Source: an uncultured Lentimicrobiaceae bacterium
GTDB taxonomy: Bacteria > Bacteroidota > Bacteroidia > Bacteroidales > SKPS01
Length of the DNA stretch: 64,000 nucleotides
Assembly (NCBI GenBank): GCA_964469215.1
Contig: CAYXYB010000004.1
Span: 103,744-167,743, forward strand
Direction: 5' to 3'
Part shown: one piece after another, positions 10,177-19,579 of the stretch
How the letters are laid out: each line of letters starts with the position of its first letter
Position numbering within the stretch: position 1 is the first letter of the stretch
The notes under the pieces: model-generated
Told to the model about the DNA's origin: nothing
The model's database searches: none
The model's input: only the letters and a program-made list of their open reading frames with translations
Position numbers and translations under genes: made by a program

Positions 10177-11049
10177 TTAAAAAGCAATGATTCTTTTCTT
10201 AATTTCTTCCATAAGCCAGAGAGGAGTAGAAGTGCCACCGCAAATACCGACTCTTGCAACTCCGGAAAACCATTCGGGTTGTAAATCATCTACTTTACTT
10301 ACTAAATATGTTGAGGGATTGTAAGCTTTACAAACTTCAAAGAGATATTTTCCATTTGAACTTTTCGGATCGCCAGCAAATACGACCACATCATAACTCA
10401 TAACAAACTGGGAGAGTTCATCTGCACGGTTTGAAACTTTGCGACAGATCGAATCAAAAGCCATAAAATCATATTCCTCATCAGAATCAATCTGTTTCAT
10501 CCTATCAATTATCCCTTGCTGAAGATATAAAAACTGATCATGATTCTGAGTGGTTTGGGCAAAAAACCTTACAGGTTTTCTGAAATCAATCTTATCAAGA
10601 TCCTCAATCTTTCCGATCACTATTACCCGGTCCGGAGCCTGCCCTTTTAAACCAATAACTTCTGCATGATTCTCTTTTCCGAAAATAACAATCTGCCCAT
10701 CAACGTTTTCCATATCCAGATAAACATTCTTTATCCTTCTCTGAAGATTCAGCACAATAGGACAGGTTGCATCAATAATCCTGATATTGTTTTTTCTGGC
10801 CGTTTCGTACGTTCCTGGGGGTTCTCCGTGAGCTCTGATCAACACGGTTTTATCTTTAAGCATTTCAAAATCATCAAGATCAATTATCCTGAGGCCCATC
10901 TTTTTGAGACGTTCAACCTCCATATTGTTATGAACAATGTCTCCAAGACAATAAACCTCATCGGCTTCTGACAGAGAACTTTCTGCTGCTCTGATTGCGT
11001 GAACCACCCCAAAACAAAAACCCGATTTCGGATCAATTTCAACAACCAT
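10177..11049 (-). CDS. ispH: 4-hydroxy-3-methylbut-2-enyl diphosphate reductase
   Basis: 290 aa. GFCFGVVHAI, three conserved Cys (C12, C96, C201 region), and the HNNMEV motif of the IspH/LytB family. Confidence 0.9.
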   Translation of the reverse strand: MVVEIDPKSGFCFGVVHAIRAAESSLSEADEVYCLGDIVHNNMEVERLKKMGLRIIDLDDFEMLKDKTVLIRAHGEPPGTYETARKNNIRIIDATCPIVLNLQRRIKNVYLDMENVDGQIVIFGKENHAEVIGLKGQAPDRVIVIGKIEDLDKIDFRKPVRFFAQTTQNHDQFLYLQQGIIDRMKQIDSDEEYDFMAFDSICRKVSNRADELSQFVMSYDVVVFAGDPKSSNGKYLFEVCKAYNPSTYLVSKVDDLQPEWFSGVARVGICGGTSTPLWLMEEIKKRIIAF

Positions 11050-11971
11050 TATTTTTATTCTTTCTTTTTAATTCATCCATAGAGATTGTTAACCATTCCA
11101 GGTAAGACTCAATATCATCCGGATGATACCATTTTATGTTGCTGTCGCGTCTGAACCAGGTCATCTGCCTCTTGGCATACCTTCTTGTATTGGTTTTTAT
11201 CTTTTCAACAGCCTCTTCAAAGGATGTCAAACCATCCAACCAGTTAAATATCTCCTTATATCCAACACTTTTCAGGGCATTTTTGTTCTTCACATGATAC
11301 AGGGTACGACATTCATCAATAAGTCCTTCAGATATCATGCGATCGACGCGAAGTTCAATTCTGGCTGATAATTCCTCTTTGGGTCTGAGAAGACCCGACT
11401 TGATTATTGCAAAAGGTCTTTCCCTTTTCTGTGCAATACGAAGACTGCTGAATTTTTTTCCTGTGGTGACTATCACTTCAAGTGCACGTAAAAGCCTTGC
11501 CGGATTCTTTTGGTCAATGGAACTAAAATAATCCGGATCCCTGACAGCCACCTCCTGCTGCAACCAGATCAACCCCTTATTTCTATATTCTTCGTTTAAC
11601 CTTTTCCTGACTTCTGGATCAATATCAGGCAGATCATCAATTCCATTTTCAAGCACATCGCAATACAATCCTGAACCACCGGTCATTACGGCTACATCAG
11701 ATAACTGATGTAGCGTATCTATCGATTCCAGCGCTTCCAGTTCAAACAAAGACACATTGTAATTATCCATAATTGACCTATGCCCAATCTGGTAATGCTT
11801 AACCATTGCAAGCTGCTCAGGTTCAGGTACCGCAGTACCAACCAACATCTCTTTGTAAACCTGTCTGGAATCTGCTGAAATAATTCCCGTACCAAAATAC
11901 CTGGCCACTTTTATGGCAAATTCAGTTTTACCGACTGCAGTCGGTCCGACGATCATCACCAGGTACTTCAT
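11039..11971 (-). CDS. miaA: tRNA dimethylallyltransferase
   Basis: P-loop GPTAVGKT followed by IISADSRQVYKEM. About 310 aa. Overlaps the ispH start by 11 nt, suggesting an operon. Confidence 0.9.
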   Translation of the reverse strand: MKYLVMIVGPTAVGKTEFAIKVARYFGTGIISADSRQVYKEMLVGTAVPEPEQLAMVKHYQIGHRSIMDNYNVSLFELEALESIDTLHQLSDVAVMTGGSGLYCDVLENGIDDLPDIDPEVRKRLNEEYRNKGLIWLQQEVAVRDPDYFSSIDQKNPARLLRALEVIVTTGKKFSSLRIAQKRERPFAIIKSGLLRPKEELSARIELRVDRMISEGLIDECRTLYHVKNKNALKSVGYKEIFNWLDGLTSFEEAVEKIKTNTRRYAKRQMTWFRRDSNIKWYHPDDIESYLEWLTISMDELKRKNKNNGC

Positions 11972-12004: not shown

Positions 12005-13783
12005 TTAATGCTTGTCAGCAACACTCCAGACAACCTCTGCAATATCCTTAACCGGTTTCATTGTTCCATAATTAAAACTCTTTTTGCATTGAGGACAGCC
12101 GGTAACCAGGATATCCGGGTCCGATATAAGCAATTCTCCTAACGAATTATCACGCATCATCTGCCTCTCTACCTCAGGAGTAATCATATCTGCCAAACTA
12201 TTTCCGCAACACAGAGATTCTGATTTCTGATGACCATTCACTATCAATCCACCACAATATGCAAGAAGAGTTCTTGGTTCATTATAAATTTTTAACCCCC
12301 TGCCAAGATCACAGGGATCGTGATAAACCATGGTCTCAGCACTCTGATTGATATGAATCAACCCTTGTTCTATTAACCTGAGCAGGTATTGTGAATGATG
12401 AAGTACTTCAATGCCGAGATTATAATCTTCAGAAAAGACTCTGAGGCAAATCGGACATGAGGTTACCAGAGTAGAAATTCCACTCTCTCTGATAATTCTT
12501 TTATTTTCCTTTATTAGTGCTCTCGCCTGCCGCTCATTCCCAGACATCATCAAAGGTCTTCCACAACAAATTGTTGAATCTCTGTCGATAAAGAAAACTT
12601 TCACTCCTGCTGTTTTGAATAATCCCTCCATTGCGATTTTTATCGTAGGTGTCAGATGGGTCATGCATCCTGCAAAATAGCCGACCTGAACAGATACAGG
12701 ATCAACAACTACACGCTCTTCAACATATTTATAGCTAAATCCGTCTTCCAGAGCATATTCATTCCTCTTAATCTTTCTGATATCATTGACTTCGATACCT
12801 ACAGGGCAGTATTCTGTGCATCTTCCGCACAACATGCAGTTGAATACTTTTTCGGATTGGAGAATATTTCTTCTGATATCCTGAATAAAATATACAGCTT
12901 GTATTGGTTCAGGCCTCACCTCAGCCAGCTGGCATTTATCGATGCAGATTCCACAACGGGAACATGAATAGATCTCAAATTCAGTGTATCCGTTGAATTT
13001 TTTGCAGGTCTTAATCCCGCAGTTTCTCATAAAGATCAGGAACAGCTCAGTTGGGATGTGATTATATCGTGAAAAAGGAATAAAGACAAAGAACAGGAAT
13101 AGTACAGAAGAGTATGCCCACCATGCAGGATATTCAAGGTACTGAAGTGGCAGTGTCGCTGAAAACACCTGACCGGCAGTACCTGTAAGGAATCCTCCAT
13201 TTTGGTGCAGCCCCGATGTAAAACTTTCTGCAAGGAACCTTAACGGAAAAATAAGCCACAAACTGTACAGGGCAATTTTATCACCTGCAACAAGCTTAGT
13301 TGTTCTTTTCATTCCAAAGAACTGGCTTCTGATTCTCTTAACAACTGCAAAAATTGTTGCAGCCAACAAAATAAGAAGAAGCAGATCCATTATGAAGCTG
13401 AATCCTTCAGCGAAGAAAAAACCATTAACATCATGTTCAAAATACCTAAGGAATATGGGATCCCAGGGCATATTAAAAACTTTGTGCTTATGAAATTTCG
13501 ACTCGAAAGTTCCTGCAACGATTAACAAAAACCAGCCAAAAGCAAGGCTCATATGCATCCATCCGAGCATGGCATTAACCCTGAATACTTTTCTATGCAG
13601 AAGGCTTTCTGAAAAAACCTCCCATAATGATCTGAAGAATGCAGGCCGGAAAAAGCCCATCCATGCCTTTCGCCTGTCGGACCTGGGCATTTGTACTATC
13701 CAATAGGTATATCGGGCAAGCAATATTGCAAACAGGATCAATGAACCTGCAACGAAGGGTATTACAAAAGGATCATAATTCAT
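12005..13783 (-). CDS. Membrane-anchored HdrD/DsrK-like Fe-S protein (polytopic NarI/HdrE/DsrM-like N-terminal domain, 2x[4Fe-4S], two CCG domains)
   Basis: About 250 aa with 5-6 TM helices, then CSRCGICIDKC and CMLCGRCTEYCP ferredoxin motifs. These are followed by the cysteine-rich CCG motifs CCGRPL and CCGNS with CPIC/CPQC. Confidence 0.65.
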   Translation of the reverse strand: MNYDPFVIPFVAGSLILFAILLARYTYWIVQMPRSDRRKAWMGFFRPAFFRSLWEVFSESLLHRKVFRVNAMLGWMHMSLAFGWFLLIVAGTFESKFHKHKVFNMPWDPIFLRYFEHDVNGFFFAEGFSFIMDLLLLILLAATIFAVVKRIRSQFFGMKRTTKLVAGDKIALYSLWLIFPLRFLAESFTSGLHQNGGFLTGTAGQVFSATLPLQYLEYPAWWAYSSVLFLFFVFIPFSRYNHIPTELFLIFMRNCGIKTCKKFNGYTEFEIYSCSRCGICIDKCQLAEVRPEPIQAVYFIQDIRRNILQSEKVFNCMLCGRCTEYCPVGIEVNDIRKIKRNEYALEDGFSYKYVEERVVVDPVSVQVGYFAGCMTHLTPTIKIAMEGLFKTAGVKVFFIDRDSTICCGRPLMMSGNERQARALIKENKRIIRESGISTLVTSCPICLRVFSEDYNLGIEVLHHSQYLLRLIEQGLIHINQSAETMVYHDPCDLGRGLKIYNEPRTLLAYCGGLIVNGHQKSESLCCGNSLADMITPEVERQMMRDNSLGELLISDPDILVTGCPQCKKSFNYGTMKPVKDIAEVVWSVADKH

Positions 13784-14108
13784 ATAGCTCTATTCCTTTT
13801 GCGATATTAATTATCACGTTTCTGGTATTTACACCTTTCGGGCAAACCAACTGGCACTTCCCACATAACATACAACACTCAATCTCTTTTTTAACAATGT
13901 CATTCATACCCCTCCGTAGTAAAAGTGACACCCTTCGAAGGCTTAAAGATGTAAAATTTCCTGCACTACACGTGGCAGCACATGTACCGCAAAAAATACA
14001 CAGGTTAATTGATGGCTCATGGGCATATACATAATTGTATAGCCTTTTATCGGTTTTGTCGAAATCTATCTGCCTGTCATTGTGCAGGGTATAGCCAAAA
14101 TTCCTCAT
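13773..14108 (-). CDS. Small 2x[4Fe-4S] ferredoxin-like protein
   Basis: CIFCGTCAATCS and CMLCGKCQLVCP motifs. Overlaps both neighbouring genes, suggesting translational coupling. Confidence 0.65.
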   Translation of the reverse strand: MRNFGYTLHNDRQIDFDKTDKRLYNYVYAHEPSINLCIFCGTCAATCSAGNFTSLSLRRVSLLLRRGMNDIVKKEIECCMLCGKCQLVCPKGVNTRNVIINIAKGIELYEL

Positions 14109-15156
14109 GAGATTTCATTTTGCGGTTTGCGAGTATGTTATCTGAAAGATAGATGTCGATTGCTGTTGCTGCAGCCCTGGCATCAGTAATGGCATTTGTA
14201 ATGGTATTTGGCCCGATACAGGTGCCGGCAAAGAAAACGCCGGGTAAAGTGCTGTAATTTGTCATGGTATGCTGGTCTGCTGTTTTAAAAAAGCCATTCA
14301 CTCCTAATGTAAGGCCAAGCATTTCTGCAGTTTTTCTGGTTCCTTCCGATGGGATAAAACCCACCAGCAGAACCAGTATATCCACATTTATCTTCATTGG
14401 CCGGCCGGCAAGTGTGTCTTCAACCTTCAGGGCAATGCTGCCATCAAAATTTTCAGATGCTTCAGACAAGCGACCCCTGACAAACTGTACATTGTAATCC
14501 TCCTGTGCCTTTTTGTACAATGCTTCAAAATGCATCCCATACATACGGAGATCCATATAAAAGTTGAAGATTTCAGCATCAGGTAACTGTTGTTTTAACT
14601 CTATTGCTTGTTTTACACCTGTAACACAGCAAACTTTTGAACAATACGTATGGCCGGCTTTTTCGTCACGTGAACCCACACAGTGAACAATACCAAACCT
14701 TTCAGGCACTTTCCCCGTCGTAGTCAGAATTGGTTTTCCCTCAATAAATAACTCTTCAAGTTCTGCCGACGTGATTACATTATTATATATGCCATATCCG
14801 TACTCCTCCTTCTTTCTCGCATCAAACAAATCATAACCCGTTGCCAAAAGAAGCGAGTCTCCTTTCAGTTGGTATCCTTTGGTGGTTGTTAAAAAAATCA
14901 ATTCCCCTTCTTTCCTGATATCTGTAATATCGGTTTCAAGATGCACAGTAACACTCTTGTTTTCCACACCCTGTGCAAGAAAATCAATAACCTCACTACC
15001 ACGCCTCATGGTAGGAAACAACCTGTCCCAGTGAGCCAGCCTCCCTCCCAGCCTGGAACCCTTTTCAATGATGTCAACGGTATAACCCTTTGCTGCCAGA
15101 AAGGATGAAGCCTCCATCCCGGCAATACCCCCTCCTATCACTAAAACATTCTTCAT
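14077..15156 (-). CDS. Short HdrA-like FAD-dependent oxidoreductase
   Basis: Rossmann motif VLVIGGGIAGMEAS. HdrA-type cluster motif CVGSRDEKAGHTYCSKVCC (CxGxRDx6-8CSxxCC). 359 aa, which is the short form also seen in bacterial sHdrA-type proteins. Confidence 0.7.
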   Translation of the reverse strand: MKNVLVIGGGIAGMEASSFLAAKGYTVDIIEKGSRLGGRLAHWDRLFPTMRRGSEVIDFLAQGVENKSVTVHLETDITDIRKEGELIFLTTTKGYQLKGDSLLLATGYDLFDARKKEEYGYGIYNNVITSAELEELFIEGKPILTTTGKVPERFGIVHCVGSRDEKAGHTYCSKVCCVTGVKQAIELKQQLPDAEIFNFYMDLRMYGMHFEALYKKAQEDYNVQFVRGRLSEASENFDGSIALKVEDTLAGRPMKINVDILVLLVGFIPSEGTRKTAEMLGLTLGVNGFFKTADQHTMTNYSTLPGVFFAGTCIGPNTITNAITDARAAATAIDIYLSDNILANRKMKSHEEFWLYPAQ

Positions 15157-15314
15157 CAGACAACCTTTTTTAAATGATAGCCACTAAAGATAATCAATTA
15201 TATCTTAATTAATATAATTCTTTGATTATCTATAATTAAACTATCACAACCCATTTTTACTCAGATGACTTTTTACTTTTAATTTTTGCCTTTAACCTTT
15301 TGCCTTTTTACAGG

Positions 15315-16373
15315 TTAAATGTTTACAAATTTCGGTTCACCAAGATCAATCCCCCCTACCCCTTTATATTTCATGCCAGGATCATAGTCAATGCCAATCT
15401 TGTCGAGCAACGGCTGTACATCAACATGGTGCAACTGTAATCCGAGATCCCAGGGATCATATCCCAATACAAGGCCGGCAACCTCTTCATAAGTAAAAAC
15501 GGGTATCCCCTTTCCGTTCTCTCCATAGGTCTTTCCCTCCATTTCCCTGATAACAAATTGCCATCTATCAAGGAAATAGGGACATCCAGGACAGTTTGTT
15601 ATGATCATATCTGGCTTAAAAGGAGCCATTGACTCGAATTTCTTTCTTGAGCATGACAGAGAATATCCCCGGTTGGCCTGAACAAGATACTGCCTGAAAC
15701 CAAATCCGCAGCAATGTCTTCTTTCCGGATAGTCGATAACCTCGCCTCCCCAGGCTTCAATCATACCTGCCAGTACATAAGGGTATTCGGCACCACCTAT
15801 ACCTTTATGTGGAAACATCCGTGCATAATGACATCCGATATGTTCAACCACCCTCAAAGGCTCACCCGTTGATTTGTTGACCAGTCGATACTTACCCTTG
15901 TCCGCAATGTCATCTCTGAATTTATAGATTATATCACTGGTATGGGCAAGGTTTTCCGGGATTTCAAACTCCCTTCCTGTTGCCCGCATGAGCTGAGTCC
16001 GTGTACGTTCTAATGTTTCCGGGAACTCATGCCATGTTTCAAGAATTTCGGTGTATATGCCAAAGGATGTAATACATGAGGGGACAAAGTTTCTATAACC
16101 TGCTGCTGTCATGAGAGCAAATTGTCTGGCTACCACTGTCATGGTTGTCTCCAGTGGAACAACATCAGAATGGTAGGCTATACCTGTGCAGGTAGTATGT
16201 GCAGGATCATCAAAAACATCCAGTTTCAACTCCTTCTGAAGGATCCTTAAAAACGCAGCTTCCGAACCCGGAAAGAAGTTCTGCCTTATGCAGCTTCGTG
16301 CATAGTAGTAATGATTTTCAGCTATCTCCTTCTGATACTCTTTCCAGATAATTTGTTTACCCTCTATTATCAT
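15315..16373 (-). CDS. HdrB-like CCG-domain protein
   Basis: Canonical C-terminal CCG domain (GCHYARM...HCCGFGF...NCPGC). The N-terminal CCG-like domain is degenerate. Confidence 0.65.
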   Translation of the reverse strand: MIIEGKQIIWKEYQKEIAENHYYYARSCIRQNFFPGSEAAFLRILQKELKLDVFDDPAHTTCTGIAYHSDVVPLETTMTVVARQFALMTAAGYRNFVPSCITSFGIYTEILETWHEFPETLERTRTQLMRATGREFEIPENLAHTSDIIYKFRDDIADKGKYRLVNKSTGEPLRVVEHIGCHYARMFPHKGIGGAEYPYVLAGMIEAWGGEVIDYPERRHCCGFGFRQYLVQANRGYSLSCSRKKFESMAPFKPDMIITNCPGCPYFLDRWQFVIREMEGKTYGENGKGIPVFTYEEVAGLVLGYDPWDLGLQLHHVDVQPLLDKIGIDYDPGMKYKGVGGIDLGEPKFVNI

Positions 16374-16388
16374 TGCTTTTAACCGATA

Positions 16389-17099
16389 TTAGTGTTTACT
16401 GTCGTGAAGCTTCGAATTTGCAGTGTATACATGCATAAAATATTCATCCTTGCCTTCACTGAATTCCAGCCCCATCTCTGCAGCTTTGAGTTCAGAGATC
16501 TGCTCTATCTTGTCCCACCGTTTAAGAGCACCTGTCTCTTCAAAAATCGCATGCAATTCATCAAGTGATTTCTTTGAAATTTTCCTGAGCGTTCCTGACC
16601 CTTCGCCATTATAATTACCTCCGAGCCTTTCAATGACCTCTTTTACATTTTCACGGAACCAATCCCAAATTGGTCCCTGTTCAGGGTGCATTGTGGTTTC
16701 AACCTCGTCAATATGAACGCAATATCCATACTTCAGTATCCATTCACCAACGGTTCTTTTTATAGCCAGCTGCTGCCTCCCTTTTTCAGATTCTGCAAAA
16801 TATCCCAGATCCTGTGACAGATTTCTCAAAGCGATCACTATCAGCCCCGGTGTATTACTTCGCGGACATCTGGTTCTGCACGACATACACTCTCCGCAAA
16901 ACCAGATAGTTTCACTTTTAAGTAATGCTATTATTTTTGAGTCATCCCTGGTCTGAACCGTATCGGCTATTATCCTGGGATCATAATTATAGAAAGAGGC
17001 TGCCGGACAGATAGCTGTACAGGTTCCGCAATTGATACAGGCATTAAGTCCCTCCTCAAACCTCACATCCTTACATAAACGATCGTATAATTTCCCCAT
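16389..17099 (-). CDS. HdrC-like 2x[4Fe-4S] protein
   Basis: CINCGTCTAICP and CGECMSCRTRCP motifs. First gene of the hdrC-B-A-like operon. Confidence 0.65.
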   Translation of the reverse strand: MGKLYDRLCKDVRFEEGLNACINCGTCTAICPAASFYNYDPRIIADTVQTRDDSKIIALLKSETIWFCGECMSCRTRCPRSNTPGLIVIALRNLSQDLGYFAESEKGRQQLAIKRTVGEWILKYGYCVHIDEVETTMHPEQGPIWDWFRENVKEVIERLGGNYNGEGSGTLRKISKKSLDELHAIFEETGALKRWDKIEQISELKAAEMGLEFSEGKDEYFMHVYTANSKLHDSKH

Positions 17100-17135: not shown

Positions 17136-17143
17136 CAAATGTA
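17136..17143 (-). promoter_or_regulatory. Candidate Bacteroidota -7 box (TACATTTG) for the hdr-like operon
   Basis: Matches TAnnTTTG on the minus strand, about 37 nt upstream of the hdrC-like start codon. Confidence 0.35.
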
Positions 17144-17212: not shown

Positions 17213-17372
17213 GCGTTTGGCTCACATCGTTGGCGTTCAGGGTTCTTTGCTCTCGCTAAACTCGGACGTTCTGAGTTCTTTGTCTTCGTTACGCTCAGGC
17301 GTTCCGGGTTCGGATCGCTTCACTTGTGTTATGGTTCATTGCTCACTTCGGTCGTGCGTTCCGGCTGTTGCC
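17213..17372. repeat. Degenerate direct repeats of about 33 bp with a CGTTCnGrGTTC core, in a divergent promoter region
   Basis: Core copies at 17234-17245, 17267-17278 and 17300-17311 (exact 33-bp spacing) and at 17357-17368, plus a decayed copy near 17327-17337. Confidence 0.6.
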
Positions 17373-17531: not shown

Positions 17532-18209
17532 ATGAAGATCCTCCTGGTGGAAGATGACCCAAAAGTTGCCTCTTTTATCAAGCGCGGCCTTACTGAAAAC
17601 AATATGAAAGTTGACCTTGCCACAGATGGCCAACAAGGGGAAGTCATGGCAAACGACAATTCATACGATCTGATAATTCTTGATATTTTGTTACCGAAAA
17701 TTACTGGGTTGGATATTTGCCGCAAAATCAGATCTCTCGACAGCAAAACCCCAATCCTGATGCTTACTGCACTTGGAACTATCAACGACAAGGTTACAGG
17801 CCTGAATGCCGGAGCAGATGACTATCTTGTTAAGCCTTTTGAATTCAGAGAATTGCTGGCAAGAATAAATGCTTTAACAAGACGAACCTATGATCTCAAT
17901 TCCAACACTTTACTTCAGATTGCAGACATGGAGGTGAATATTGAAGCAAAGACTGTTAAACGAATGGGTAAAGAGATACGTCTTACCGCTAAAGAGTTTA
18001 ATCTGCTGGTTTTTCTTCTCAGACACAAGGGAAGGGTAATTTCCCGAAGTGAAATCGAAGAGAAGATCTGGGGCACAACCTTTGAAAGAGAAAGTAATGT
18101 TGTAGATGTTTATATCAACTTTCTCAGAAAGAAAATTGACAGGGATTTTGAATCAAAACTTATTCACACAATTATTGGAATGGGATATGTACTAAAACTC
18201 AAAGGGTAA
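17532..18209 (+). CDS. OmpR/PhoB-family response regulator
   Basis: Receiver domain (MKILLVEDD, DLIILDILLP, T/K residues) plus a winged-helix trans_reg_C domain (LTAKEFNLLVFLLRHKGRVISR...GMGYVL). Confidence 0.9.
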   Translation: MKILLVEDDPKVASFIKRGLTENNMKVDLATDGQQGEVMANDNSYDLIILDILLPKITGLDICRKIRSLDSKTPILMLTALGTINDKVTGLNAGADDYLVKPFEFRELLARINALTRRTYDLNSNTLLQIADMEVNIEAKTVKRMGKEIRLTAKEFNLLVFLLRHKGRVISRSEIEEKIWGTTFERESNVVDVYINFLRKKIDRDFESKLIHTIIGMGYVLKLKG

Positions 18210-19579
18210 TGAGTATAAGATTAAGATTGATGCTGTTATTTACAACGATAACAGCAGTAATCCTTGGGGCATTTTCCATTAACATTTATTATTCTACTGT
18301 CTATATCCGAAAGAATGCCTTCCTCGACAGGCTTTGGGAAAGATCTGATATTGTTGTACAGTTGCTGAGAGATAACCCGAATCCTGATCTAAGCTGTATT
18401 CATCCATCTGCCCGCAATACATACTGGACTATCCTGCCGGAAGAGGAGATCGTTGTTTTCGACAATAATGGTCATTCTATGTTTATAAATGAATTTACCG
18501 CCCTCAATATCAATTATTATAGAATAATTGAATTGCTTAAAAAAACGGAAACGTCTGAATACATGCTTGGGCAGAGAAAATTCGTCGGGGTAAGAGAAAG
18601 AATCAATGGCAAAACATATTACGTGATAGTATCAGCATGGGACAAAAATGGGCACCGGTTGCTAAATAACCTTAGAATCACAATTGTATCCTCTTTTATT
18701 GCCTCTATTATGGTCATTATTCTGGCTGGATGGCTTTTTGCAAGAAAGATATTCCAACCAATAGAAAAAATCATTGAGACAGCAGGAAGAATAAGTGAAA
18801 CTGATCTTCACCTGAGGGTTTCTATACCACGAGGCAAGAATGAACTGGTAAGACTTGTAAATACCATCAATGAATCTTTTGACAGACTACAGAAATCATT
18901 TGAGGTTCAGAAAACTTTTGTTGCAAATGCGTCTCATGAACTTCGCACACCATTAACAGCTTTGCAAGGGGATCTTGAACTGGCTCTCTACAAAGAACGT
19001 TCAGCCGAAGAATACAGGCAATATCTTTCTGCTGCTTATGAAGACTCCAGGCAATTATCACGGCTGGTAAACAACCTTCTTCTGTTTGCGCAAACAAGTA
19101 ACAACCCGAATAAACTAGACTTCCAACCTGTAAGGGTAGATGAGCTGCTTCTTGATGTTATTCAGAAAACCCTTATCTCTTACCCGGGACGAAATATTGA
19201 TTTCAGGTTCAAAGATAAAACATCTGATGAGAGAAGATATGCTGTATATGGAATTGAAAATCTGCTAAGTATTGCTTTTGCAAATATTCTTGAAAATGCC
19301 TTGAAGTTTTCAAAAGGCACGCCAGTTCTGATAGAAATATCAACAGAAAACAACCTTGCAATAAATATAATCGACCACGGGATAGGTATTTCACTGGCTG
19401 ATGTGGAGAGCATTTTTGTCCCTTTCTACAGATCAAAAAGATCCTCAGATGTAACTGGATTCGGTCTTGGACTGCCACTTGCCAGGCAAATCATTGAACT
19501 CCACAATGGAACAATCTCAGTAGAAAGCAAAATAAGCGAAGGAACAAAAGTAATGATCATTTTTCCCTCAAGCCTTTAA
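18209..19579 (+). CDS. Sensor histidine kinase (2 TM, HAMP, HisKA, HATPase_c)
   Basis: H-box FVANASHELRTPLT and N/G boxes (NILENALKFS, DHGIGI, GFGLGL). The start overlaps the regulator stop (TAATG). Confidence 0.9.
   Translation: MSIRLRLMLLFTTITAVILGAFSINIYYSTVYIRKNAFLDRLWERSDIVVQLLRDNPNPDLSCIHPSARNTYWTILPEEEIVVFDNNGHSMFINEFTALNINYYRIIELLKKTETSEYMLGQRKFVGVRERINGKTYYVIVSAWDKNGHRLLNNLRITIVSSFIASIMVIILAGWLFARKIFQPIEKIIETAGRISETDLHLRVSIPRGKNELVRLVNTINESFDRLQKSFEVQKTFVANASHELRTPLTALQGDLELALYKERSAEEYRQYLSAAYEDSRQLSRLVNNLLLFAQTSNNPNKLDFQPVRVDELLLDVIQKTLISYPGRNIDFRFKDKTSDERRYAVYGIENLLSIAFANILENALKFSKGTPVLIEISTENNLAINIIDHGIGISLADVESIFVPFYRSKRSSDVTGFGLGLPLARQIIELHNGTISVESKISEGTKVMIIFPSSL

Follow-up and report, generated by a model that had tools for sequence, protein, structure and literature searches.

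Which reaction is carried out by a set of five Hdr-like genes carried by a Bacteroidales bacterium? The genes occupy positions 12005-17099, all on the minus strand, of a 64,000-nucleotide (nt) stretch of DNA from an uncultured Lentimicrobiaceae bacterium (GenBank assembly GCA_964469215.1, contig CAYXYB010000004.1, positions 103,744 to 167,743). The whole stretch is called the window hereafter, and coordinates are window positions. The products of this cassette are an HdrC-like and an HdrB-like protein, a short HdrA-like flavoprotein, a small ferredoxin and a membrane protein. A sequence-only reading of the window had delimited the same five open reading frames (ORFs) and described their content in these terms, with which Pfam and NCBIfam agree. 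We consider it very probable that the cassette specifies a quinone-linked Hdr-type redox complex, and rather probable that its substrate is a sulfur or thiol compound. Our proposal, made with less than even confidence, is that the five genes may form one membrane-bound, menaquinone-coupled Hdr-like complex making sulfite oxidatively; the sulfite-forming direction, taken by itself, is advanced more tentatively still.

The five genes travel as a unit. Of 41 relatives, close ones and others of the order, about 16 have a full-length orthologue of the membrane protein, which is 592 amino acids (aa) long, and an identical five-gene order was found in 11 of 11 extended loci of relatives. A scan of one genome per species gave at least 292 encoding loci, of which 80 were kept for analysis, and the synteny was intact in all 80, wherever the contig permits. 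Since the order is kept in both sets and the cluster cysteines are 99-100% conserved, the five-gene set is far beyond chance. The association of a soluble HdrABC-type module with a membrane module in one operon, which had been suggested from the window alone, is thus borne out by this conserved synteny.

Judged by record titles, the carriers are Bacteroidales. They include metagenome-assembled genomes (MAGs) labelled Rikenellaceae, Alistipes, Rikenella, Tidjanibacter, Butyricimonas, Prolixibacteraceae, Marinifilaceae and Saccharicrinis, and the isolates Mariniphaga sediminis, Gaoshiqia hydrogeniformans and Plebeiibacterium sediminum. In a first even sample of the order, 58 of the 151 genomes (56 of 142 genera) carried the cassette, and in a larger one 106 of 291 genomes (81 of 197 genera) did so, which amounts to about 36-38% of the sampled genomes, gut genera included. 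The HdrB-like protein is the most conserved subunit among orthologues (62-82% identity), the corresponding ranges being 50-80% for the HdrC-like and 37-76% for the membrane protein. More than 2,700 clusters of HdrB-like sequences at 90% identity exist in public data, all of them generically named. The flanking genes are not conserved, as determined by clustering 1,213 flanking ORFs from the 80 loci. Recurrent flanks consisted of lineage-specific synteny (purL, peptidases, a lipoprotein), two-component systems, and a capB-capA-SDR block discussed below. Twenty tight neighbours of the cassette were inspected and were mostly housekeeping genes.

The HdrC-like subunit (236 aa, 16389-17099, minus strand) matches Pfam Fer4_8 and related families. 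It contains two CxxCxxCxxxC motifs, expected to hold two [4Fe-4S] clusters, and a C-terminal extension with an invariant C127; the eight motif cysteines are 99-100% conserved in 69 orthologues. The HdrB-like subunit (352 aa, 15315-16373, minus strand) matches Pfam CCG and can be aligned from end to end with HdrB structures of methanogens (E 8.9e-33). Of its two CCG motifs, the C-terminal one has all five cysteines (C181, C221, C222, C261, C264). The N-terminal one is degenerate, with C28, C62 and C100 as the only three of five canonical cysteines, 'TC' in place of the HdrB 'CC' and 'CxxS' in place of 'CxxC'. The earlier description of this protein as a CCG protein was therefore right, except that one of its two sites departs from the canonical form. 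C28, C62, C100 and also H144 are invariant in the 69 orthologues and in the archaeal relatives, and H68 is conserved too. In EtfD, Thr539 and His583 go with a linear [3Fe-4S] distal cluster, and EMO has a [4Fe-5S] cluster at this place; because the first CCG domain of EtfD/EMO builds such a variable distal cluster, the HdrB-like subunit may likewise hold a variant one. By this analogy it would carry one canonical noncubane [4Fe-4S] cluster and one variant three-cysteine site, and it is presumed to be the catalytic subunit.

The HdrA-like flavoprotein (359 aa, 14077-15156, minus strand) matches Pfam Pyr_redox_2. It has a thioredoxin-reductase fold that binds flavin adenine dinucleotide (FAD) and one [4Fe-4S] site (C159, C172, C176, C177; motif HCVGSRDEKAGHTYCSKVCC), whose four cysteines are 100% conserved. 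It lacks the inserted and terminal ferredoxin domains as well as an MvhD-binding domain. Residues 1-332 align with residues 1-335 of the Hyphomicrobium denitrificans sHdrA (PDB 6tjr; E 2.8e-61, 33% identity). With methanogen HdrA, identity is higher, 41%, but confined to the FAD core (about residues 140-190 and 316-567 of the 650-aa HdrA). The end-to-end alignment with 6tjr indicates that the protein has the sHdrA architecture; this likeness is one of shared architecture only and does not imply orthology to sHdrA. The fourth gene encodes a 111-aa HdrC-type 2x[4Fe-4S] ferredoxin (13773-14108, minus strand; Pfam Fer4_8 and Fer4_7, the top NCBIfam models being HdrC, below cut-off). Its cluster cysteines, C37/40/43/47 and C79/82/85/89, are all 100% conserved in 67 orthologues. 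The gene overlaps both its neighbours, hdrA by 32 nt and the membrane gene by 11 nt, and it holds the same position in Bacteroidales and in Altiarchaeales cassettes. No cassette protein reached a curated NCBIfam cut-off: HdrC scored 88.7 bits versus 350, HdrB 136.7 versus 450, and HdrA2 257.8 versus 1100.

The membrane subunit (592 aa, 12005-13783, minus strand; Pfam Fer4_8 and two CCG domains) has a polytopic N-terminus, a 2x[4Fe-4S] segment (C274-C326, eight cysteines) and two complete CCG motifs (C373, C406, C407, C443, C446; C491, C525, C526, C563, C566). All ten CCG cysteines are invariant, like those of catalytic HdrB/HdrD. The top sequence match in the PDB was the Mycobacterium smegmatis EtfD (9ojn_A, phmmer E 6.6e-18). 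An AlphaFold2 model built from 11 orthologues (predicted local distance difference test score 78.8) shows five long helices before residue 240; five transmembrane (TM) helices are predicted. In a Foldseek search with this model, 9ojn was the sole full-length match (E 3.7e-19, 749 columns), the others being LutA and HdrB on the CCG part. By sequence match and by model, then, the membrane subunit is an EtfD/EMO-type protein.

The ligands to be expected from this likeness are largely kept. H77 and H242 are invariant in 81 sequences; H63, Y224 and F231 are invariant too, and F85 is nearly so. In the phmmer alignment H242 and F231 align with EtfD His241 and Phe230, and H77 and F85 match His78 and Phe85. 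EtfD binds a single heme b via His78 and His241, with menaquinone placed against Phe85 and Phe230 (PMC13083937). The distal heme of EMO has a further His ligand, H233 in the Syntrophus aciditrophicus protein, corresponding to H223 in M. smegmatis EtfD. This position is occupied by the invariant Y224 in the Bacteroidales family, an assignment that is tentative as it falls in a low-scoring segment of the alignment. Since H77/H242 and F85/F231 are kept and the distal His is replaced by Tyr, the protein may well bind heme b at the proximal position only and take up its quinone close to the cytoplasmic side. The subunit is probably mono-heme and heme-b/quinone-reactive, with the same caveat of a low-scoring alignment segment. 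It had previously been taken for a membrane anchor of the HdrE/D or DsrM/K kind. The anchor itself stands, as a probable heme-b/quinone-reactive Fe-S/CCG protein with a candidate for the pair of heme-b-ligating His residues that was to be looked for; the di-heme DsrM/K type does not, since the full-length match is to EtfD/EMO and the protein looks mono-heme.

Better characterised families of the same general build fit poorly. On NCBIfam models, the 592-aa protein scored 89 bits for LdhH (cut-off 800), 88.6 for TfrB (385), 65 for GlpC (278), 43.5 for GlcF (333), 39.6 for DsrK (400) and 20.7 for QmoC (300), so that an identity of the LutAB, GlcF or GlpC type, which would have pointed to a non-sulfur substrate, is excluded. 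The genome holds in addition a split EtfD-like pair (L105/L107, G000:C15:34147-38513), made of a 431-aa membrane and 2x[4Fe-4S] protein with GFMHAM and SKHFHIF motifs and a 267-aa CCG protein whose first CCG reads 'TC', like the linear-[3Fe-4S] site of EtfD. A rhodanese-domain gene resembling tRNA 2-selenouridine synthase and a gene for a secreted protein lie between the two, and split pairs occur in many relatives. The existence of this separate pair with 'TC' indicates that the cassette membrane protein is not the housekeeping ETF:quinone oxidoreductase.

How does the cassette compare with known Hdr-type systems? The sHdr systems are defined by shdrC1B1AH together with C2B2 (type I) or with B3-etfAB-emo (type II), and are reported to be always accompanied by LbpA and TusA/DsrE-type transferases (PMC11094781). 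The gene order of the cassette, HdrC-HdrB-HdrA-small protein-second HdrC/HdrB-type module, runs parallel to that of the sHdr of Hyphomicrobium denitrificans, Aquifex aeolicus and Sulfobacillus; the short 6tjr-type HdrA is shared, and type II is likewise expected to reach menaquinone via an EMO-type membrane protein. In contrast to sHdr, it has no soluble C2B2 or B3, no etfAB and no separate emo, the second HdrC/B module being the membrane protein itself. Its HdrA is closer to archaeal HdrA than to sHdrA, its HdrB-like subunit has the three-cysteine N-terminal site, and its hosts are fermentative or anaerobically respiring Bacteroidales rather than known sulfur oxidisers. The sequence-only reading had likened the C-B-A order and the short HdrA to sHdr, while seeing no lipoate-binding, DsrE or TusA genes nearby. 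The likeness holds across all 80 loci and in the end-to-end 6tjr alignment, and no such gene lies beside the cassette. Among 91 cassette loci, no GcvH-like (LbpA family) or TusA-like gene was found, save one distant housekeeping gcvH. The GcvH family (PF01597) has one copy in this genome and none in the cassette genomes G045, G048, G119 and G139 (odds ratio (OR) 0.93), and 32 of the 58 cassette genomes lack TusA (PF01206; OR 1.12, p=0.74). A dependence on LbpA and TusA as a general requirement is ruled out by these loci and by the co-occurrence in genomes. The cassette thus resembles sHdr in layout and fails its defining membership features.

With EtfD/EMO (M. smegmatis EtfD, 9OJN; S. aciditrophicus EMO), the membrane subunit has in common the single polypeptide with a five-helix NarI-like domain, 2x[4Fe-4S] and two CCG noncubane domains, the proximal heme ligands (one His in TM2, another following TM5) and the menaquinone-contact Phe residues. 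It differs in keeping all ten Hdr-type cysteines, in the tentative replacement of the distal-heme His by an invariant Tyr, and in being encoded with HdrCBA and a ferredoxin instead of ETF, no etfAB being found in any cassette locus. The Methanosarcina HdrDE also joins a cytochrome-b membrane part to an HdrC/HdrB-type part with two complete noncubane sites, and is predicted to have an EtfD/EMO-like fold. There, however, the parts are separate, three hemes are modelled in HdrE versus probably one here, methanophenazine is used rather than menaquinone, and no HdrABC-like soluble module is added. To our knowledge, no coenzyme M/coenzyme B metabolism is expected in Bacteroidales.

The HdrABC of methanogens (PDB 5ODC, 8RVV, 9SFI, 7BKB) has homologous A, B and C subunits and gave the best PDB scores for HdrB and for the HdrA core. 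The cassette HdrA, at 359 aa versus about 650 aa, lacks the ferredoxin and N-terminal domains, the HdrB-like protein keeps eight of ten cysteines, NCBIfam equivalog cut-offs are missed 3-4-fold, and there is no hydrogenase or formate dehydrogenase partner. QmoABC and DsrMK(JOP) similarly couple HdrA- or HdrD-like proteins to a heme-b membrane protein and menaquinone in sulfur metabolism. Qmo differs by its two HdrA paralogues (the cassette has a single one), the absence of HdrB and the C-terminal membrane domain of QmoC; beyond the low DsrK and QmoC scores, no apr or dsr genes are linked to the cassette. LutABC, GlcDEF and GlpABC are set apart by the lack of equivalog-level matches and of their partner catalytic genes in the 80 loci. 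The parts of the cassette are, by sequence, of known families (Hdr-like, sHdrA-type, EtfD/EMO-type). Their combination, namely an sHdr-ordered C-B-A core with a ferredoxin and a presumably mono-heme EMO-type subunit keeping a full Hdr active site, is apparently undescribed, as are the absence of LbpA, TusA and ETF and the distribution in Bacteroidales and Altiarchaeales; no published description of the cassette in Bacteroidota or Altiarchaeales was found in the literature searched.

What, then, might be the product? The informative neighbours that recur have to do with sulfur. Directly after the cassette, in 6 of the 80 loci, lie genes for an alpha-oxoamine synthase (CapB/SulA-like), a CapA-like protein and an SDR. 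The CapA-like protein has the threonine-synthase fold, and archaeal cysteate synthase (TIGR03844) is its second-best NCBIfam model (112.7 bits, below cut-off). In the sampled genomes, capA abuts hdrC on its upstream side in G134, G093 and G209, and in G039 it comes directly after the membrane gene, so that two independent arrangements exist; cassettes beside cysteate synthase are spread over several families. In at least seven other genomes (G024, G156, G069, G103, G075, G028, G014), capA adjoins PF01507 genes of CysH and CysD size; PF01507 is the APS/PAPS-reductase family, which also takes in CysD. Since it adjoins cysH and cysD there, the usual neighbours of capA appear to be sulfite suppliers.

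Among the 30 genomes of the first sample that have CapA, the cassette was present in 7/7 of those without PF01507 (seven families, 99-100% complete), versus 5/23 of those with it (Fisher test, p=3.9e-4), and none of the 30 lacked both. Genomes added subsequently gave 3/6 versus 2/16 (p=0.10). For the pooled set, the figures were 10/13 versus 7/39 (OR 15, p=2e-4), and after collapsing to genus 7/10 versus 5/30 (p=0.003). No association between cassette and PF01507 was seen in genomes devoid of CapA (OR 0.83). Such a pattern would be expected of a cassette able to provide cysteate synthase with sulfite in place of sulfate activation.

Several further observations touch on this sulfur metabolism. 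In one locus only (L071), a TauE/SafE gene lies 67 bp upstream of hdrC. The genome under study has a CapB/SulA-like alpha-oxoamine synthase (G000:C2:100265-101515), 68% identical to the copy of the capB-capA operon, and an SDR and double-glyoxalase-domain pair (G000:C3:128654-130579) syntenic with the capC-like pair of L042 and L055; no CapA-like cysteate synthase could be recognised in it, the best tblastn match being 24% identical. Genes of the PAPS_reduct family occur in 118 of the 151 Bacteroidales genomes, as a rule a CysH-sized one and a CysD-sized one, and siroheme sulfite reductase (PF01077) in only 10. A role of the cassette as a substitute for siroheme sulfite reductase was rejected: half of these 10 genomes carry the cassette, and there is no cassette enrichment in genomes with CysH but no CapA.

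On the proposal that the complex forms sulfite, electrons would flow as follows, the wiring being modelled on homologous proteins. A cytoplasmic sulfur substrate would be turned over at the HdrB-like subunit, from which electrons would pass via the two [4Fe-4S] clusters of the HdrC-like protein to the [4Fe-4S] cluster and FAD of the short HdrA. The 111-aa ferredoxin would then hand them to the membrane subunit, through its two noncubane clusters, its 2x[4Fe-4S] segment and the proximal heme b (H77/H242), to menaquinone bound near the cytoplasmic face. With the quinone site on that side, this step would not be electrogenic. Overall, sulfane sulfur derived from sulfide would be oxidised to sulfite, the reaction proposed for sHdr, here with no lipoate-binding protein involved. 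The electrons would go to menaquinone and finally to fumarate reductase, and lineages that possess cysteate synthase would use the sulfite to make sulfonolipids. Textbook potentials are about -116 mV for HSO3-/HS-, about -74 mV for menaquinone and about +30 mV for fumarate/succinate; given these values, menaquinone could accept the electrons from this oxidation, which would be more favourable still if fumarate reductase is the final sink.

A number of observations weigh against sulfite formation. The sHdr partners are missing, from the loci (no lbpA or tusA in 91) and often from the genomes (GcvH family absent from four, TusA from 32 of 58), and the HdrA is only 33% identical to sHdrA while reaching 41% with the methanogen HdrA core. 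Three genomes with CapA have neither PF01507 nor the cassette (G192, G247 and G260, the capA of G247 looking truncated). There is no overall association between CapA and the cassette (12/30 versus 46/121, OR 1.09), and 46 of 58 cassette genomes have no CapA, the present genome and its genus included. This genome moreover has a CysH-like gene with an ECGLH motif (C10:59269-59979). Kinship between the sampled genomes was handled only by collapsing to genus, and the Fisher p-values are optimistic, since these genomes are phylogenetically related. Finally, the ten-cysteine membrane subunit would also suit a reductive disulfide reductase of the HdrDE type.

In such a reductive mode, the substrate would be a disulfide, persulfide, polysulfide or protein trisulfide of the cytoplasm. 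Menaquinol, possibly together with a second low-potential donor, would reduce it at HdrB, at the membrane subunit's fully Hdr-type noncubane pair or at both, and thereby recycle a thiol carrier. The ten CCG cysteines, all kept as in catalytic HdrB/HdrD, whereas the distal cluster of EtfD/EMO is variant and non-catalytic, are consistent with this, as are the fold that HdrDE is predicted to share with EtfD/EMO and the presence of two Hdr-like modules in the cassette. However, no thiol carrier or DsrC/TusA-type partner is linked (TusA co-occurrence OR 1.1), the single proximal heme offers no obvious energy coupling, and both the clustering with cysteate synthase and the CysH/CysD complementarity would be left unexplained. 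We consider this reductase unlikely. Quite unlikely, in our opinion, is a bifurcating or confurcating module comparable to Qmo or HdrABC, in which the FAD of HdrA would split or merge electrons among menaquinone, a low-potential carrier (the 111-aa ferredoxin, or a soluble ferredoxin or flavodoxin) and a substrate of HdrBC. The two Fe-S branches leaving HdrA (HdrCB on one side, ferredoxin and membrane subunit on the other) do provide the required topology, the HdrA core shares 41% identity with the bifurcating HdrA of methanogens, and the closest relatives of the HdrB-like protein outside the cassette are archaeal Hdr proteins. But the inserted and C-terminal ferredoxin domains, which carry the low-potential branch of HdrABC, are lacking; the architecture is that of sHdrA, a homodimeric Fe/S flavoprotein in the sHdr literature; and in none of the 80 loci does the cassette have a hydrogenase, a formate dehydrogenase or an NAD(P)H module linked to it.

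The CCG/noncubane domains could also serve merely as wires, as in EtfD/EMO, GlpC, GlcF, LutA or SdhE, over which an organic substrate or an ETF-like donor would pass its electrons to menaquinone. The noncubane clusters of EtfD/EMO are indeed non-catalytic relays, the N-terminal site of the HdrB-like subunit is degenerate, and there is weak NCBIfam similarity to LdhH, TfrB, GlpC and GlcF. Such a non-sulfur dehydrogenase is nevertheless improbable: LdhH, GlpC and GlcF scores are far below cut-off, no catalytic subunit (GlcD/E, GlpA/B, LutB/C, EtfAB or acyl-CoA dehydrogenase) is linked, the genome already has its split EtfD-like pair with the T-for-C substitution, and the recurrent informative neighbours are sulfur-related. 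A last candidate stems from the window itself. About 4.5 kb from the cassette, with a two-component system between, lie genes for an Otr-like octaheme cytochrome, a cytochrome b561, a split YeeE and rhodaneses, and the sequence-only reading had drawn a functional tie to them; both modules would then form one system handling thiosulfate or tetrathionate. YeeE-like importers accompany sHdr in some sulfur oxidisers (PMC11582611). The distribution largely refutes this tie, which is hardly credible now: flanks of the cassette differ even between members of the genus, none of the 80 other loci has Otr or YeeE genes beside it, the congener G003 has Otr on a different contig from the cassette, and Otr occurs in 5/58 cassette genomes versus 26/93 others (151 genomes, OR 0.24, p=0.004). 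The juxtaposition in the window is best read as local. The Otr-like cytochrome is positively associated with the CapA-like protein (11/30 versus 20/121, OR 2.9, p=0.02); CapA, Otr and the cassette occur together only in G039.

Is the cassette restricted to Bacteroidales? A search with the HdrB-like protein against 1.84 billion representatives at 50% identity gave only 65 matches at E<=1e-30, the Bacteroidales orthologues collapsing to essentially one full-length representative in this set. The nearest full-length outgroup, at 46% identity, is annotated as Candidatus Altiarchaeales archaeon WOR_SM1 in two assemblies. This assignment is a MAG annotation on which two separate MAGs and several metagenome contigs agree. 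On the Altiarchaeales contigs, the order is hdrC-(NifX-like)-hdrB-hdrA-(65-aa ferredoxin)-112-aa ferredoxin-630-aa membrane protein. Identities with the window proteins are 48% for HdrC, 42% for HdrB, 47% for HdrA, 50% for the ferredoxin and 37% for the membrane subunit over full length. In another Altiarchaeales lineage (L119, L121; 74% identity with the first), the cassette consists of just the five genes, without the extras. The next relatives of the HdrB-like protein belong to ordinary archaeal hdrCBA sets, for instance of Methanomassiliicoccales, with a 772-aa HdrA. The occurrence of the cassette in Altiarchaeales raises the question of inter-domain transfer or ancestry.

The extras of the Altiarchaeales locus L112 (4393-15685) comprise a duplicated hdrC-hdrB, a 123-aa NifX/Nitro_FeMo-Co-domain protein between hdrC and hdrB, and the added 65-aa ferredoxin, and a convergent nitrogenase-like Oxidored_nitro pair (410 and 461 aa) adjoins its membrane gene. 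One HdrB-like protein, 73% identical, is labelled 'Euryarchaeota archaeon HGW-Euryarchaeota-1' at NCBI; at this identity, compared with 42-46% for the Altiarchaeales copies, it probably comes from a mis-binned Bacteroidales contig. Another arrangement of the same HdrB subfamily is seen on metagenome contig L115 (1-4875), where a 44%-identical HdrB-like gene precedes genes for a short HdrA-like protein and for a second Pyr_redox_2 flavoprotein, without ferredoxin or membrane subunit.

Within the window, the gap between hdrC and hdrB is 15 nt, and an AT-rich spacer of 158 nt (15157-15314) separates hdrB from hdrA, versus 3-15 nt only in most relatives. This spacer contains a 10-bp inverted repeat on the minus strand (15231-15222, AGATAATCAA; 15197-15188, TTGATTATCT). 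Downstream of the membrane gene come miaA, ispH and rpsA. The miaA-ispH pair (10177-11971) starts 33 nt past the membrane gene, and 11 nt past it in a congener (L024, 10995-13051), so that in this genus only it may be co-transcribed with the cassette by read-through; no terminator-like site was predicted between membrane gene and miaA, by a scan that was itself at chance level. The sigma-70 promoter and terminator scan of the locus as a whole was likewise at chance level and not informative, and no riboswitch or other Rfam RNA element was found near the operon at E<=0.1.

On its other side, hdrC faces a divergent pair of genes on the plus strand, which by Pfam encode an OmpR-type response regulator (17532-18209) and a HAMP histidine kinase (18209-19579); asnB follows, and the Otr module lies beyond it. 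The pair is a possible dedicated regulator of the cassette, its membership being uncertain: homologues adjoin the cassette in loci L024, L025 and L043, and a different kinase and regulator pair, of NarL type, does so in about nine other loci. A candidate Bacteroidota-type -7 promoter box, TACATTTG (17136-17143, minus strand), was read from the letters 37-44 nt 5' of the hdrC start codon. It conforms to TAnnTTTG, which we take to be the Bacteroidetes promoter consensus, and together with the leader downstream of it is also kept 5' of hdrC in a congeneric genome (L014). The spacer between hdrC and the response regulator gene further contains three 14-nt direct repeats of the form GGCGTTCNGGGTTC (GGCGTTCAGGGTTC, GACGTTCTGAGTTC and GGCGTTCCGGGTTC; 17232-17311) with an exact 33-bp phasing. 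They are missing from the equivalent spacer of the congener (L014, 5808-6065), despite the conserved promoter-proximal sequence of hdrC.

Hdr-type noncubane enzymes are central to methanogenesis, sulfate reduction and sulfur oxidation and, as recently found with EtfD/EMO, to fatty-acid respiration. The operon described here is a distinct and very abundant combination of Hdr-type parts. In its fullest form our proposal is rather unlikely to hold in every element: the cassette would be a lipoate-independent enzyme, directly coupled to menaquinone, that makes sulfite from sulfide-derived sulfur where conditions are strictly anoxic; for anaerobes unable to activate sulfate, it would be the sole route to sulfite, hence to cysteate and to the immunologically active sulfonolipids known from gut Rikenellaceae and Odoribacteraceae; and Hdr-like systems would gain in it a third architectural type, so far unrecognised, either old or horizontally exchanged between Bacteroidales and Altiarchaeales. 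An anaerobic sulfite source of this kind would fill a gap in sulfonolipid biosynthesis, the origin of sulfite in strict anaerobes without CysH, and would add an unrecognised oxidative sulfur reaction to sulfur cycling in gut and sediment. Should the cassette turn out to be a disulfide reductase dependent on quinone, or a bifurcating module, this would bring to light a new thiol cofactor or a new energy-coupling site in Bacteroidales.

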